43,095 nt of DNA from UHGV virus genome UHGV-1678524. One strand, written 5' to 3'. The DNA comes from a virus. How positions within the stretch are numbered: the stretch's first letter is position 1; the number at the start of each line of letters is the position of its first letter. The translations under genes were made by a program, and so were the position numbers. The notes below the pieces were generated by a model that was given only the letters and a program-made list of their open reading frames with translations, searched no databases and was not told the DNA's origin. Shown here one piece after another: positions 13,545-32,854 of the stretch.

Positions 13545-13698
13545 TTTAACTTATCTCTCAATTCACAATAAGAAAGCCCTAAAAAGAACCCTAGTAAGAC
13601 AGAACCTATGAACAACCCAATAATACTCTCTGCCATATCTAACATCCAATAAAAAAGGTGATGTAAGCCTATCAAGACTCACACCACCATGTCAAGTT

Positions 13699-14646
13699 TT
13701 ACATAGAAACTCTGTCACGAATCTCAGCGATTTTTGCATCATTCATTCGTGATTCACCTTTAATCTTAGTCCAGCCAAGATAACCACACACCCTGTTAAT
13801 CACAGAGATATCATGTGAATGGCAAACCTCACATTCTTCAACATCAGCCTTTGGCCTGTTACCACAATGCTCACAGATTGCTAAGTCAAAGTTAAGTCCC
13901 TGATAAAAACCCTTCAACATCCCTCTGGTAATACAACTTTTAAGTGCTGTTAAGTTTTCTGGGTTAGCTACCCTTACATACTGGATTCTGCCACCTCTAC
14001 AGATATGGAAGAATGGTTCTTCTAAGTCCTGCTTCTCAAATGGTGAGATGTTTGCTGCAACATTCATATGGAAACTGTTTGTAAAGTATTCCTTGTCAGA
14101 AACGCCTTTGATAACACCAAACATATCTCTGAACTGTTTTAGCTGAGTTCCACACAATGACTCTGCTGGAGTACCATATACCGCATACAAGAAGCCATCC
14201 TCATTCTTAAACTCTTCAGTTTTCATGTTAATGTATGCCAGAACATCGTATGCAAAACTAGAGCTTCCAACTTCATGAAGTCGTTTACCCTCAGTAAGAA
14301 CAGATAACTCATCAAGCGCAGTAACCCCAAAAGAAGCTGTGAAGGACTTCACGATATCCCAACCAACCTTGTCGGTGGATTTTTTAGTTCCTTTGTACAG
14401 ACCACCTTGTGTGAATGCAAGAGGGTTAGAACTTGCTGGCATATTAGCAATCATTTCGTAGCGTTTCTTGTGGAAGCTGCGAATCATCTCTAGGTACTTA
14501 TCAAGCTCTTTCCAGAAATCTAAGCCATTCTCTTTGGTGTACTGATAAATCATTGGTAAGTTCAAAGATACAGCACCAATGTTAGCACGACCTACATAAA
14601 ACTCTTCACCATGTTCGTTATGGTATGGTGATAAAAATGCTCTACA
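13699..14646 (-). CDS. nrdD: Anaerobic ribonucleoside-triphosphate reductase, exon 2 (C-terminal part with Zn ribbon and glycyl-radical motif)
   Basis: CEHCG...CEVCHSH and RVCGYLG near the C-terminus; the M in the ORF track is a TTG artefact, with an in-frame stop just upstream at 14668-14670. Confidence 0.7.
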   Translation of the reverse strand, partial: CRAFLSPYHNEHGEEFYVGRANIGAVSLNLPMIYQYTKENGLDFWKELDKYLEMIRSFHKKRYEMIANMPASSNPLAFTQGGLYKGTKKSTDKVGWDIVKSFTASFGVTALDELSVLTEGKRLHEVGSSSFAYDVLAYINMKTEEFKNEDGFLYAVYGTPAESLCGTQLKQFRDMFGVIKGVSDKEYFTNSFHMNVAANISPFEKQDLEEPFFHICRGGRIQYVRVANPENLTALKSCITRGMLKGFYQGLNFDLAICEHCGNRPKADVEECEVCHSHDISVINRVCGYLGWTKIKGESRMNDAKIAEIRDRVSM

Positions 14647-14962
14647 CTTGTTGTTCAAGTAAGTTCGCTAAGCTTACCCCGCTTTATTCAAGCTGCTTAC
14701 TGTCGCCAGTAAGTCCAGACTATATCTTCTACTTATTTCTAAGTAGCGTACCATTTCGAGTCGCTTGACCCTACACCGCTACATTCATCACGGTTAGTCG
14801 TTCGGCATTTAGATGTACTCAAACTTATATTCGAAGTTGTTTGGCATGTAAGACTCCTATGTTGTATAGTTTCTTACATCATACATCATTTAGCACAGGA
14901 TTGTCTACATCTGTAGAGTTTCCCTGTTTAGGCACGTTTTAGATGAGCTATAGAGCTTGTTA
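14647..14962 (-). ncRNA. Group I self-splicing intron in nrdD, ORF-less (about 316 nt)
   Basis: Interrupts a conserved gene; minus strand contains AAGAUAUAGUC (S element, plus 14718-14728) and CGACUAACCG (R-like, plus 14791-14800); exon 1 ends in U, GCUCAU guide candidate in the intron, intron ends in G; in-frame join ...VISPMG|CRAFLSPY... Confidence 0.65.
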
Positions 14963-16159
14963 ACCCATCGGTGAAATAACCTTGCCAGAACGCTCAAAAG
15001 CCTCTGCTACAGCACCATGACCAGATACACTTAAGAAATCTGGATACATCGCTTTAGAGCAACACTCAATGGCTTTACTATACAGGTGTCCTTGACAGAT
15101 ATTCTCATCGTGTCTCTTCTGGTCATAAATATAAACCAGTTTAGGGAATACAACAGGCTTCTTGCTCTTACCTTGTCCATTCATACGAACATCTAGGAGA
15201 GTACTTGCAATCATATATTGCAGTCGGTTATCTTCATTGGACATATCTGAATCAAGTAACCCGAATGTCAAAGTTGTAAATGCAAAATCCCCACGACTAC
15301 AAGGTACAGTGTTTAGTTTCATTTCAAGTGACTGGAAACCTTGAGTCAGTTCAATCTGTAGCTGCTCCATGACATAATTGTGGTAATGTTCTTTAGGAAT
15401 ACCATAAGATGCTGCTTTCTCAGCATGATAGCGTAGAGACTTCTTAGCATACGGCACAAGTACCTTATCAATCTCTGCTAAAGTAAAACCGCCAAATTGC
15501 TGTGCAGTTGCTGAAAGAACTACGTCACCAATAACCTGTAAGGCCGACAGCACAGACTTTGGTTCACAATATTCGATGCCAGACATTTCAAAGCCACCTT
15601 TCAGGACTTTACCAATGTCAAACAGGCAACAGTTGATACCACCAAAAATTAGGTCTCTTAAATCATGGATATAGATAAATCCTTTTTCAATGGCTTCAAG
15701 TTCCTCTGGTGTTAAATGGTACTGTTTAAAGATTTCTTTAGTCAGGTAACCACGAATAATTGAACCTTTTGTAGAAATTAAACTGCTGTCAAAGTTAGCA
15801 TTTTCACGGTCACCTAAGAAGAGTGTGTCTCTAGTCTTTTGGTAAAGCTCATCCCAATTTTGAGCAACTTCTTTACGGTAATTTCTATATGTTGAATAAG
15901 ACTCATAAATCTCGTGATTGACTTCTGCCAAAGCACCCTCAACAATACTGTGAATATCATTTACAGAAATCAGCAAATTATTCTGCTTAGTGGACTTTAC
16001 CAGAATCCTCATAAATGCTGACTCAAGAGCTTGGGTAACATCTGGTGGGAGTTCTTTATATCCAACCCTGTTAGCTGACTTAGTTACTGCTGCTAAAACT
16101 TTTTTGATATCAGGTTCTTCAAGTGAGCCATTCTTTTTAATAATCTGTACTTTGTTCAT
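14963..16159 (-). CDS. nrdD: Anaerobic ribonucleoside-triphosphate reductase, exon 1 (N-terminal ATP-cone and catalytic part)
   Basis: N-terminus MNKVQIIKKNGSLEEPDIKKV is ATP-cone-like; ORF runs into the intron and stops at 14960-14962. Confidence 0.7.
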
Positions 16160-29095: not shown

Positions 29096-29352
29096 GTAAG
29101 CCTCTTTTAAGTAACTATTAAGTTTTAATCTTTTATCTTAACGTATTCTATACGTTATACTTTAAAGCTTTTTAAAAGCTATTAAATAATCTTTTAAGAG
29201 TTTTAAAGTATCTGTATAGTTAAACTGTTAAGTAACCTTTTAAGTAAAAACCCACTTCGCAAAGATTAACACCTTGTCAAGTACATTGTCAACTTGCTTT
29301 TTATAATTTTTTGCAGTAATGTATGAGGTTAATGATTTTAGAGGGAGTAAAA
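29096..29352. promoter_or_regulatory. AT-rich divergent intergenic region (probable bidirectional promoter region)
   Basis: 257-nt AT-rich spacer between divergently oriented blocks; minus strand has tandem TTGACA hexamers (GTTGACAATGTACTTGACAAGG); RBS GAGGGAG precedes the polymerase ATG at 29353. Confidence 0.35.
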
Positions 29353-31495
29353 ATGGAAAACGTAGATTTTAAAAACTTACATTTGGTTGGTGATACAGAA
29401 ACTGATGGTTTACTCCTTGAGTTCACTAAAGTGCACGTAATGGCTTTCGCAGACTATAAATCTGACGATGAAGAGCCACCTGTATGGGTCTTTACAGATG
29501 AACCTATCCTCGGTCACAAGTATACCAAGTACATTAAGGGTGGCTTACGTGAAGGTGTTGAATTTGCGTTAAAGGCAAAACGTCTTTGCATCCATAACGG
29601 TCTCGGTTATGACTGGTGGGTTTTTAATCACATTGCACCTGATTTATGGAACTTTGATAATCCAAAGTGTAAGCCGTGGAGTAATTTCTTTCAGGATTCT
29701 CTTATCCAGTCTCGTGTTCAGTGGATGGATAGACCAACTCCAAAGGGTTATAAAGGTGCTCATGGCTTGGCTGCATGGGGTGCTCGTGTTGGTGTTCGTA
29801 AGCCAGAGATTGAGCATTGGGGTGTGTGGAATGCAGAAATCTTCACTCGTGTTGTAGAAGATATTCGTATTAACGCCAAAACTAAACGGGCACTTGATAA
29901 CGAGTATCTCAAGCTTAAGAAGTGTGGTATAGACACTTATGAAACCTACATGCGAGCTAAAGAAACATCTTTCTGGATGAGTCAACAGGCTATCAATGGT
30001 TGGAAAGCTGATAAAGAACTTATGGAGTTCCATGTAAAGGAACTTGACAAGTTGACTAATGAGCTTGCTTCAGAGGTTGAACCACATCTACCTCCAACTA
30101 TTAAGACCAAAGGTAAAGTCACTGGAGAAGAGTTTGCAAAAGCTTGGAATGAGTATGTTGAAACATTCGGTCATGCAGATGGACTGAAGAGAATTACCAA
30201 GTACCCTAAGACAAAGTATCGTCAACAGGTGCGTAACGGTGAGATGCAGACATACGAAATCAAGCCATTTGGTAAGCCAACTACAAAGATTTTTAACATT
30301 GAAAAGAGAAATTGCTATACACCAACCAACTCTGTAACTGGTGAAGAGTACAAGGAAGGTTTTGTAGCAATGAAGGATGCTCGTGCAATTTGCAACGAGT
30401 TGAATGCAAAGATTGGTAAGAAATGCAAAGACTGGAAGCCAGTAAAAACAGTTAAGACTGTGAAGTACTATAACAGCCATGTTGTTAACCACTTTGAGCT
30501 TGAGTCAAGTCGCTACACAGGTTTGATTGATGCACCATATACACCAATTGAGTTCGAAGTTTCTCGTATGACTCAGGTAGCAGTTGTTAAAGACTACTTG
30601 AAATCAGTTGGTTGGATTCCAGATGACTGGAACTACAAGAAAGACTCAGATGGTCGTCCTGTTAAGGTTTGTCGTTTCAAAGACAACAAAAAGATGATTA
30701 CCAAGCATCCTAAGTGGCAGGAGATGGTTGAACGGTGTGGTTTGAGTTATGTTGAACATGAAGGTGTCCAGTACATTGAGCATAACTGGTCTGTGAAGAA
30801 GTACACAGATTTGCTTGAGCCTTGCTTAATCCGTACTTCACCAAAACTTACTGAATCATCTTATGATACGATTGAAGGTGAGCTTGGACAGAAGATTGCT
30901 AAGTACTATACTTTGATGCACCGACGTAGAACTATTGAGAACTCAAAAGATGATGAAAAAGGTTGGTTGAACCAGATTCGTCCTGATGGTCGCCTTAGTG
31001 CTGGTGCAATGGTGTTTGGTACTTCAACTGGACGTATGACACAATATGGTATTGTAAACGTACCGTCTGGTGCTGCTGTCTATGGAGCACCTATGAGGGA
31101 AGTTTGGACTTGTGAAGAAGGTACTAATATTGTTTCAGCCGACATGAATAGCGCCCAACTTGTGCTACTGTGTAACTTTATGGGTGATAAAGATTTCACT
31201 AAAGCAGTGACGGAGGGTAAAGAAGAGGTTGAGTTTGTCAAACAAGAGGATGGTAGATACTATTGCAAACATTTTGACCAGTATCTAAACCCAGCTATTG
31301 ACAAGTATTTACATTATGATTCTGAAAATGACTTATACGTGGTGTACTCAGGGACTGATGCACATACTTTGAATAGTATCTACTTCAGTCTTAATAAAGA
31401 GGAAGACATCTTGACATGTCGAGCTACTCAGGATACAAACCTTCTTCAAGAAATTAGTAAAGGTCGTAAGAAAGCCAAAAATGGCATCTATGCGT
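29353..31495 (+). CDS. DNA polymerase, family A (T7-like), exon 1: 3'-5' exonuclease domain and polymerase domain through the first half of motif B
   Basis: Start at MENVDFK (RBS GAGGGAG upstream). Exo I motif LVGDTETDG; motif A-like SADMNSAQLVLL; ends inside motif B (RKKAKNGIYA). Confidence 0.75.
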
Positions 31496-32297
31496 CAGTG
31501 GCGCATGTAAAACGTTGTGAATTGCTGGAAGCCTAAGTCTGTAAAGATATGGTAATCAGCAGCGAAGTCTCTGTTAGGACTCCTAAAACAAAGGAGAGAG
31601 ACAATGGCAGGTTACGAAGAGAGATTATGCACTGAGTGTGGTACGGAGTTTAAACCATATCAATACAATCAGAAACGGTGCAGAAGTTGTGTATTAAAGT
31701 TTGACAGAAGGGCAGAACACAGGGTTCTTACTAAGAAATGTCCTAGTTGTGAGAAGGTGTTCATGCCGAGAACAGCAAGGCAAGTTTATTGTTCGTCACA
31801 TTGCGGTGAGAAAGGTAGAGTTAAGAATTACTCCCTAAGAACATATGGATTGGAAAGAGAAGAGGTTGAGGCTCTACTCCGTGACTGTGATTACAAATGT
31901 CAAATTTGTGGCGGTGAAGGTTTTATCATGAATGGTTCACGACACAAGGCTAAACTTGTTGTTGACCATGACCATAAAACCGGAAAGGTAAGAGGTATGT
32001 TATGCCACAATTGCAACAGAGCTTTGGGGTTGCTTGCAGATAGTGTTGATAACATGCAAAGAGCAATTGACTATCTAAGTAAATGATATAACTATAGAGA
32101 TTCCTAACAGAGAAACGTTCAGAGACTATCGAAAAGCATACTTAACGTATGAACTGAGTAGAGTAGGGTGGTAAGCTAATGACCATCCCCAAGTGCAACG
32201 GTAGCATCACTGCTACGTGATATAGTCCGACACTCCGTAGAAATGCGGAGAAGTTCATAAGAGAACTGGTACACCTTGCGAGTGTATTGACCAGATG
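31496..32297 (+). mobile_element. Group I intron in the DNA polymerase gene, carrying an HNH endonuclease ORF
   Basis: GUUCAGAGACUA (R, 32117-32128) and GAUAUAGUCC (S, 32219-32228); exon ends in U, intron guide GCGCAU (31501-31506) pairs with exon end AUGCGU; intron ends in G at 32297; in-frame join KNGIYA|LLFGAGDEK restores motif B (cf. T7 AKTFIYGFLYGAGDEK). Confidence 0.7.
31604..32086 (+). CDS. HNH (His-Me finger) homing endonuclease encoded within the polymerase intron
   Basis: 160 aa; several CxxC pairs; C-terminal VVDHDHKTGKVRGMLCHNCNRALG is a classic HNH motif. Confidence 0.75.
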   Translation: MAGYEERLCTECGTEFKPYQYNQKRCRSCVLKFDRRAEHRVLTKKCPSCEKVFMPRTARQVYCSSHCGEKGRVKNYSLRTYGLEREEVEALLRDCDYKCQICGGEGFIMNGSRHKAKLVVDHDHKTGKVRGMLCHNCNRALGLLADSVDNMQRAIDYLSK

Positions 32298-32854
32298 TAT
32301 TGTTCGGGGCTGGCGATGAGAAATTTGCTAAGACGATTAAAGCATCTACAACTGAGGAAGGCGCTTTAACTAAGCAAACATACTTTGTACGTCTCCCTAA
32401 AATTAAGAAGTTGATAGATAATTTAGAAGCAGACTTCAAAGCCACTAAGAAGGCTCTTGAAGAGGTATTTGGTAAGACCGCCGCAATCTCTAAAGGGGGG
32501 TTTGTAAAGGTTGCTGGAGCTTGGTTGTGGTGTAAATCTCCACATAAGTTATTGAATTATTTGCTTATGGGTTCGGAAAGTCAGGTTCAGAATGAAGCCA
32601 TCAACCTCGCTTGTAGAAGAACTTGTGAAGAGGGTCTTACAAAGTTGAATGGTCGAAAACCAGCTATTGGCGCTAGATTGCTTTTAGCATATCACGATGA
32701 GAATAGTTGGGAGTGTCCAGAAGACATGACACAGGATGTTAAAGCAGTAATTGACTGGATGTATGGTCAAGCATCAAGAAATTTAGGGCTTAAGGAGGAA
32801 ACGCTTGTAACTGGTACTGGTAAAGTTGGTAAAAATTGGCTTGAAGTACACTGA
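32298..32854 (+). CDS. DNA polymerase, family A, exon 2 (second half of motif B, motif C, C-terminus)
   Basis: LFGAGDEKFAKT completes motif B; LLAYHDENSWE is motif C-like; C-terminal VGKNWLEVH resembles Pol I-family C-termini. Confidence 0.75.

Follow-up and report, generated by a model that had tools for sequence, protein, structure and literature searches.

By sequence, the closest characterised relative of the intron described here is that of the phage T4 nrdD gene (sunY), followed by that of the T4 td gene. The sunY intron is 1033 nt long, and the gene for its GIY-YIG endonuclease I-TevII follows P9 in the 3' part. The td intron interrupts the thymidylate synthase gene, has a P2 helix and carries its ORF, encoding the GIY-YIG endonuclease I-TevI, in the P6a loop. 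In the Michel-Westhof classification, subgroup IA2 is recognised by P7.1 and P7.2 between P7 and the 3' strand of P3 together with P9.1/P9.2 extensions. Introns were stated to be absent in the Felix O1 genome paper (PMC3185647), and later papers on these phages described nrdD as "split by a homing endonuclease" and did not name an intron (PMC4837284, PMC3728262). From the annotation note of phage wV8 and the Felix O1 paper, we infer that nrdD of Felix O1 itself is uninterrupted. Our literature search found no paper describing this ribozyme or its ORF-less derivative, none testing its splicing, and no experiment that shows splicing in this phage or in any Felixounavirus.

The window, a stretch of 43,095 nt of the virus genome UHGV-1678524, encodes nrdA, nrdB, a glutaredoxin, a small ORF and nrdD in this order on its minus strand. 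Matches to the nrdD region, at 92-97% identity, came from over 200 Felix O1-like phages (Ounavirinae, Felixounavirus), and a tRNA scan of the window found no genes. A sequence-only reading had described nrdD as two ORFs separated by an ORF-less spacer of 316 nt, and this layout was recovered with exon 1 at 14963-16159 (minus strand), consisting of 399 codons that end in ...SPMG, and exon 2 at 13699-14646 (minus strand), consisting of 315 codons plus the stop and opening with UGU for the catalytic cysteine. The first ORF as listed runs from 14960 to 16159 on the minus strand, its stop TAA being bases 1-3 of the spacer, and its coding part is therefore 14963-16159. No ORF reached 60 aa in the spacer (14647-14962), whose longest are antisense ORFs of 47 and 33 aa, plus a relic of 12 codons.

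Joining the two exons gives a 714-aa protein reading ...SPMG|CRAFL... across the junction. The uninterrupted nrdD of wV8 has a CDS of 2145 nt (714 codons), the same length as the predicted spliced NrdD, which agrees with the earlier estimate that about 714 aa makes a full NrdD, and the exon 1 product was 98% identical in amino acids to the N-terminal part of wV8 NrdD. A 400-nt query made of the ligated exons returned a single unbroken match in many Felixounaviruses (wV8, dune, VpaE1, warpig and others). Across the junction wV8 reads ...CCGATGGGT|TGCAGAG..., and the predicted boundaries are exact against this empty allele. The predicted ligated junction in the window phage is ...CCGATGGGT|TGTAGAGCA..., giving the junction-spanning peptide ...VISPMGCRAFLSPYHNEHGEEFYVGR. 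An ambiguity of 1 nt in the boundary, with T on both sides, was settled by the requirement for a terminal intron G. The spliced protein aligned with the solved NrdD structures 9d3x and T4 1h78 with no gap through the junction (SPMGCRAFLS versus SPMGCRSFLS). With wV8 and the solved structures both reading across the junction, the comparison with intron-less NrdD indicated an insertion and not a natural split of the protein. Counted along the structure alignment, Cys400 of the window NrdD is aligned with Cys290 of T4 NrdD, which we take from the T4 NrdD structural literature to be the thiyl-radical cysteine, and the intron therefore directly precedes the catalytic cysteine codon, between Gly399 and Cys400.

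Both splice sites were fixed by P1, P10 and the terminal G. The internal guide sequence (intron nt 7-21, 14942-14956, minus strand) consists of the P10 strand GCUCUAUA (14956-14949) directly upstream of the P1 strand GCUCAUC (14948-14942). The proposed pairing of exon AUGGGU with guide GCUCAU extends to 7 bp between the last seven nucleotides of exon 1, GAUGGGU (14969-14963, minus strand), which form the 5' strand of P1, and intron GCUCAUC (nt 15-21), at -8.8 kcal/mol by duplex calculation, and the terminal U of exon 1 pairs with G15 as the canonical U.G wobble at the cleavage site. P10, which was absent from the sequence-only reading and which fixes the 3' splice site, pairs intron nt 7-14 with the first eight nucleotides of exon 2, UGUAGAGC (14646-14639, minus strand; P10 3' strand), over 8 bp (-11.4 kcal/mol by duplex calculation). 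The last intron base is the omega G (14647), and both this terminal G and the in-frame join had been placed exactly where the boundaries were found. P1 might face competition from an alternative 4-bp hairpin, AGCU/AGCU at nt 6-17. Exon 2 of Vibrio phage F100 differs from that of the window, and its P10, GAUUGGCA/UGCCGAUC, shows full compensation when compared with that of the window. P10 was only 64% paired in the MAFFT alignment because exon 2 and guide differ between phages and were misaligned, and it was judged by per-sequence duplex calculations instead.

The 316 nt at 14647-14962 (minus strand) form a group I intron that is complete in structure. It is IA2-like and endonuclease-free and belongs to the phage introns of the T4 sunY/td type as a member with its ORF deleted. 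The covariance-model check of the earlier group I call was positive, with RF00028 matching the minus strand over its full length (model positions 1-253) at 53.8 bits against a gathering score of 50, a threshold that it barely exceeds, with E = 5e-11 over the 43-kb window. It was the sole Rfam family above its gathering score anywhere in the window. The Rfam placement of P1/P2 within exon 1 (up to 15070) was rejected as an artefact of a P2-containing model applied to a P2-less intron, the true P1 lying at the junction, and no P2 helix was found in the window intron. The minimum free energy (MFE) of the 316 nt was -80.7 kcal/mol (z = -3.0), and none of 100 shuffles folded as well. The MFE fold yielded P3, P4, P5, P6, P6a, P7.1, P7.2, P8, P9 and P9.1, while P9.2 lay outside it and was assigned by hand and by covariation.

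Reading along the minus strand, the 5' strand of P3 (nt 27-32) and the P4-P5 hairpin (nt 36-68) lie at 14895-14936 in the MFE fold, followed by the P6/P6a domain (nt 69-158, 14805-14894), in which P6a pairs nt 76-81 with 146-151 and the P6a loop is the position of an HNH gene in relatives. The 5' strand of P7, GACUA (nt 164-168, 14795-14799), was read from the sequence and belongs to the GACUAA at 14799-14794 already noticed as an R-like element. It pairs with UAGUC at nt 241-245 (14722-14718), so that P7 forms a pseudoknot with P3. P7.1 (nt 169-188, pairing 169-173 with 184-188) and P7.2 (nt 192-205, pairing 192-196 with 201-205) occupy 14758-14794, and the 3' strand of P3, GGUACG (nt 211-216), occupies 14747-14752, each placed by the MFE fold and covariation. 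The P8 hairpin (nt 217-234) and the S element lie at 14718-14746 (sequence, MFE fold and covariation). The S element AAGAUAUAGUC (DNA AAGATATAGTC, 14728-14718) includes the 3' strand of P7 and is identical to that of the T4 nrdD intron, as the sequence-only reading had claimed for the T4 type. The 3' end of the intron (14647-14713) comprises P9 (nt 250-267, with a GCGA loop), P9.1 (nt 270-282), P9.2 (nt 284-306) and the terminal G, as placed by the MFE fold and covariation. A hand-drawn P9.1 pairing AGCUU (nt 269-273) with AAGCU (nt 288-292) was dropped; the hairpins at 270-282 and 284-306 fit the variation among relatives. All four of P7.1, P7.2, P9.1 and P9.2 expected of subgroup IA2 are thus present, and P9.1 and P9.2 covary.

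Covariation was scored on seven aligned introns, namely those of the window, two other Felixounavirus variants, F100, a 137-kb IMG/VR contig, T4 sunY and a terminase-like gene, with ORF-bearing loops trimmed (402 columns) and pseudoknots included in the structure. Standard pairs filled 92% of cells in the proposed helices compared to 35-42% when the 3' partner was slid by 1-3 columns, pairs changed on both sides numbered 31 of 80 compared to 5-9 in the slid controls, and the covariation score was 0.41 compared to 0.07-0.10. None of 500 shuffles reached the observed pairing and covariation values. Compensatory changes occurred in P3, P4, P6a, P7.1, P7.2, P8, P9 and P9.2, with P3 and P4 both 100% paired (three and two pairs, respectively, changed on both sides), and all five pairs of P7 were invariant in the seven sequences. 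Variation in P9.2 among the Felixounavirus introns was wobble-compatible (G-C to G-U and U-A to U-G). The conserved group I core from P3 to P8, including the P3/P7 pseudoknot, is therefore present by covariation.

The Felixounavirus spacer occurred in three forms, one of 316 nt (the window and EC6), one of 742 nt with a gene of 154 codons (Mushroom, UAB_Phi87, FSL SP-010 and the BASEL phage Bas63 JohannRWettstein) and one of 292 nt (RPN213). The 742-nt intron sits at the same site as the window's, has the same ribozyme and is 95-99% identical, and its gene belongs to Pfam HNH_3 with I-HmuI (1u3e) as best solved-structure match (E = 4e-9). In alignment with Mushroom and Bas63, the 316-nt form corresponds to the 742-nt form with 426 nt removed, an in-frame loss of 142 of the 154 codons of this I-HmuI-like gene that is confined to the peripheral P6a loop and leaves all core helices intact. 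An intact intron-encoded homing endonuclease gene is absent from the window intron, where only a relic of 12 codons lies at 14809-14847 (minus strand), consisting of ATG, eleven codons and TAA (MPNNFEYKFEYI*). Retained from the lost gene are the AGGAG ribosome-binding site (14858-14854), ATG CCA AA, and the last ten codons with the stop, and the ends of the deletion meet at about 14840/14839. In the relic, the final two sense codons, UAC AUC, double as the 3' strand of P6a, and this role would explain their survival. In RPN213 the 5' endpoint of the deletion is a different one and the ribosome-binding site and ATG are also gone, so that the HNH gene was lost at least two times independently. 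The compact form had been singled out as endonuclease-free, and it does lack the gene, but as judged from these alignments it is not primitive and is a deletion derivative of an HNH-bearing intron.

Allele counts, which are approximate and were taken from BLAST piece and place counts, gave about 60 records with the HNH form, about 35 with the ORF-less form and about 125 empty, with a rough estimate of about 95 public Felixounavirus genomes carrying the intron. In some relatives, such as Mushroom (L002:3755-4255), a free-standing NUMOD3-type homing endonuclease gene was located just downstream of nrdD exon 2; it is absent at about 13545-13698 of the window, and its carriers are marked by three-piece BLAST matches spanning about 3600 nt. 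Among GenBank records bearing the label "Campylobacter phage" (MG065664, MG065668 and others), those named A132 and A126 were 95% identical to the nrdD region including the ORF-less intron, and mislabelling or contaminant assemblies are the probable cause.

A second group I intron of 802 nt (31496-32297, plus strand) splits the family A DNA polymerase gene of the window inside a Leu codon, with exons at 29323-31495 and 32298-32854. U is the last base of its 5' exon and G that of the intron, P1 is formed by exon AUGCGU and intron GCGCAU, and its Rfam score of 24.6 bits is below threshold. An ORF within it (31604-32086) is of the Endonuclease_7/HNH type (Pfam E = 6e-20), and the joined exons read ...NGIYALLFGAGDEKF..., in agreement with phage heid, in which the gene is uninterrupted. 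Relatives also have an ORF-less version of this intron that is 537 nt shorter.

The best explanation of the nrdD locus, and one in which we place high confidence on the comparative evidence, is that an ORF-deleted group I intron is spliced from nrdD pre-mRNA to give a 714-aa NrdD. Splicing would follow the established chemistry of group I introns. The gene would be transcribed as a single pre-mRNA, in which guide nt 7-21 would form P1 with the last seven nucleotides of exon 1 and P10 with the first eight of exon 2. A free guanosine bound at P7 would attack the 5' splice site, the 3'-OH of exon 1, once freed, would attack behind the terminal G, and ligation would yield the reading frame ...SPMG-CRAFL... 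of the 714-aa protein. Since the exon 1 frame stops at the UAA of intron bases 1-3, ribosomes would be kept out of the ribozyme. Having no homing endonuclease of its own, the intron cannot mobilise itself, but it might propagate by ordinary recombination, or in trans where an HNH-encoding relative infects the same cell.

The exons were open in all ten intron-bearing alleles sampled, and pairwise dN/dS relative to the window was 0.00-0.09 at dS 0.13-0.44 for both exons. Open exons under such strong purifying selection argue that the interrupted gene is expressed as a functional protein, which needs splicing, although part of this signal may date from an intron-free past if the intron spread recently. 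These data weigh against the spacer being a splicing-dead remnant in an nrdD pseudogene, tolerated since anaerobic ribonucleotide reduction is often dispensable, as do the intact core helices, terminal G, P1 and P10 and the wobble-compatible variation of P9.2. The remnant would account for the endonuclease gene already being lost, and an imprecise deletion in Salmonella phage ST11 that destroys the catalytic Cys codon indicates that loss of nrdD can be tolerated, yet we regard a dead intron as improbable. In ST11 (L025, MF370225, locus about 497-510), nrdD reads GATGGGT-TAA-TTTTTATCACC, that is, exon 1, the first three intron bases and then exon 2 from +10, so that the Cys-Arg-Ala codons are gone and a stop is left. 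This layout looks like an imprecise intron deletion, with sequencing or assembly error also possible, and nrdD is probably inactive there.

Nearly all public records that were inspected present nrdD as two unrelated CDSs, the GenBank record of Bas63 being one in which NrdD is already annotated as a joined CDS across the HNH-bearing form. In EC6 (L001 CDS 2398-3264) and Mushroom (L002 CDS 2824-3690), the annotated CDS omits the first 81 nt of exon 2, and the catalytic cysteine is consequently in neither annotated NrdD fragment. Two separate CDSs would be expected if nrdD were naturally split into two polypeptides that assemble after translation with no RNA splicing, and a TTG at 14658 would start an exon 2 protein MNNKCRAFL that includes the Cys. 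Such assembly is the case in NrdA of Aeromonas phage Aeh1, split by mobE, and a phage ribonucleotide reductase assembled from fragments gives a precedent (PMC3045599). However, no Shine-Dalgarno sequence was seen upstream of this TTG, the break cuts through SPMGC, an active-site motif left whole in the solved NrdD structures, the spacer is a complete ribozyme fold with covariation support, and intron-less alleles point to an insertion and not an ancestral split, so that a split gene appears even less probable than a dead intron. A chance occurrence of group I-like motifs in an ordinary intergenic spacer, for which only the near-threshold Rfam score speaks, is refuted by the E value of that match, boundaries exact against empty alleles, the strong covariation and 70-82% nucleotide similarity to T4 sunY/td and other Rfam-positive phage introns.

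Empty, HNH-bearing and ORF-deleted alleles coexist among close relatives. Diversity among intron-bearing alleles reached its minimum within the intron, at 1.5 differences per 60 nt, with about 2-3 in the adjacent exon sequence and a rise to 5-8 over the interval from -121 to -480. Differences between intron-bearing and empty alleles peaked at 12, compared to a background of about 4, over the initial 60 nt of exon 2, and exon 2 positions +9 and +12 separated all sampled intron-bearing from all empty alleles in a comparison that left out loci L015 and L017. The diversity trough, the exon 2 peak and the pattern at +9 and +12 are consistent with homing and with recent spread accompanied by co-conversion, short of proof.

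The intron is chiefly of use for annotation, where recognising it restores a 714-aa NrdD, and as a natural example of the homing-endonuclease life cycle. Distant Vibrio phages also have an intron at this site, F100 / 184E37.3a and the 137-kb IMG/VR contig carrying introns at the identical boundary ...MG|CR.... NrdD proteins of the Vibrio phages are only about 28-34% identical to the window's, while the intron core is homologous at about 70% identity. The F100 intron is 819 nt long with a homologous HNH gene in P6a, whereas that of the IMG/VR contig is naturally compact, ORF-less and 251 nt long (Rfam 70.5 bits). These introns differ from the window's in P10 guides that match their own exon 2, in the sizes of P6a and P8 and in phage lineage. 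A second intervening sequence of about 263 nt, also ORF-less, was observed in nrdD of the IMG/VR contig (L010:1728-1990) after ...LTSVNG (query residues 290/291). No Rfam family reached its gathering score in this insert, which marks a third nrdD site and in which GCCGUUU could pair with the 5' exon AAACGGU. In F100 (L007:222-1380), nrdD has a further break upstream, with an insert carrying a gene for a 309-aa HNH endonuclease (324-1253), and is thus in at least three pieces. The 27-mer AACGACTAACCGTGATGAATGTAGCGG, from P7 to P7.1, was identical in introns of unrelated genes in other viral contigs (L011, L016 and L021), including the intron of the terminase-like gene (L011; 87 bits against RF00028), and the ribozyme lineage of the window has evidently spread across many phage genes.

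With the self-splicing intron of T4 sunY, the window intron shares the host gene, the ribozyme type with P7.1/P7.2 and P9.1/P9.2, the lack of P2 in the alignment, the P1 guide hexamer GCUCAU and an in-frame stop at the very start, with 82% identity over nt 14-75 and 76% over nt 144-262. At P7.1/P7.2 the T4 intron has the compensatory CCCU/AGGG in place of CCGU/GCGG. The td intron shares the IA2-type core (71% identity over nt 152-311) and, in having its ORF in the P6a loop, resembles the HNH-bearing relatives. T4 nrdD had been cited as a precedent, which holds for the gene but not for the site. The T4 intron lies inside a codon at AYE|YEV (about query residues 277-281), approximately 122 codons upstream by tblastn and direct reading, so that it is not the same insertion and a shared site was ruled out. 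Both the T4 site ...UAUGAGU| and the Cys site ...GAUGGGU| pair with GCUCAU, a hexamer identical in the T4, Felixounavirus and Vibrio phage introns. It is conceivable, though on balance unlikely, that a sunY-type ribozyme colonised two nrdD sites by guide-matched site choice as in reverse splicing. Were this so, the core would later have gained different endonucleases, an HNH enzyme in P6a as opposed to a GIY-YIG enzyme downstream of P9, and Felixounavirus would display a full homing cycle at one locus, with empty and invaded alleles, at least two independent endonuclease-gene deletions and one imprecise loss of the intron. Apart from this, the locus is a textbook case and no new category, a T4-type ribozyme at the most conserved codon of a ribonucleotide reductase gene. 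With empty, endonuclease-bearing and endonuclease-deleted alleles in one genus, it offers a convenient natural system for studies of homing, endonuclease loss and trans-mobilisation.
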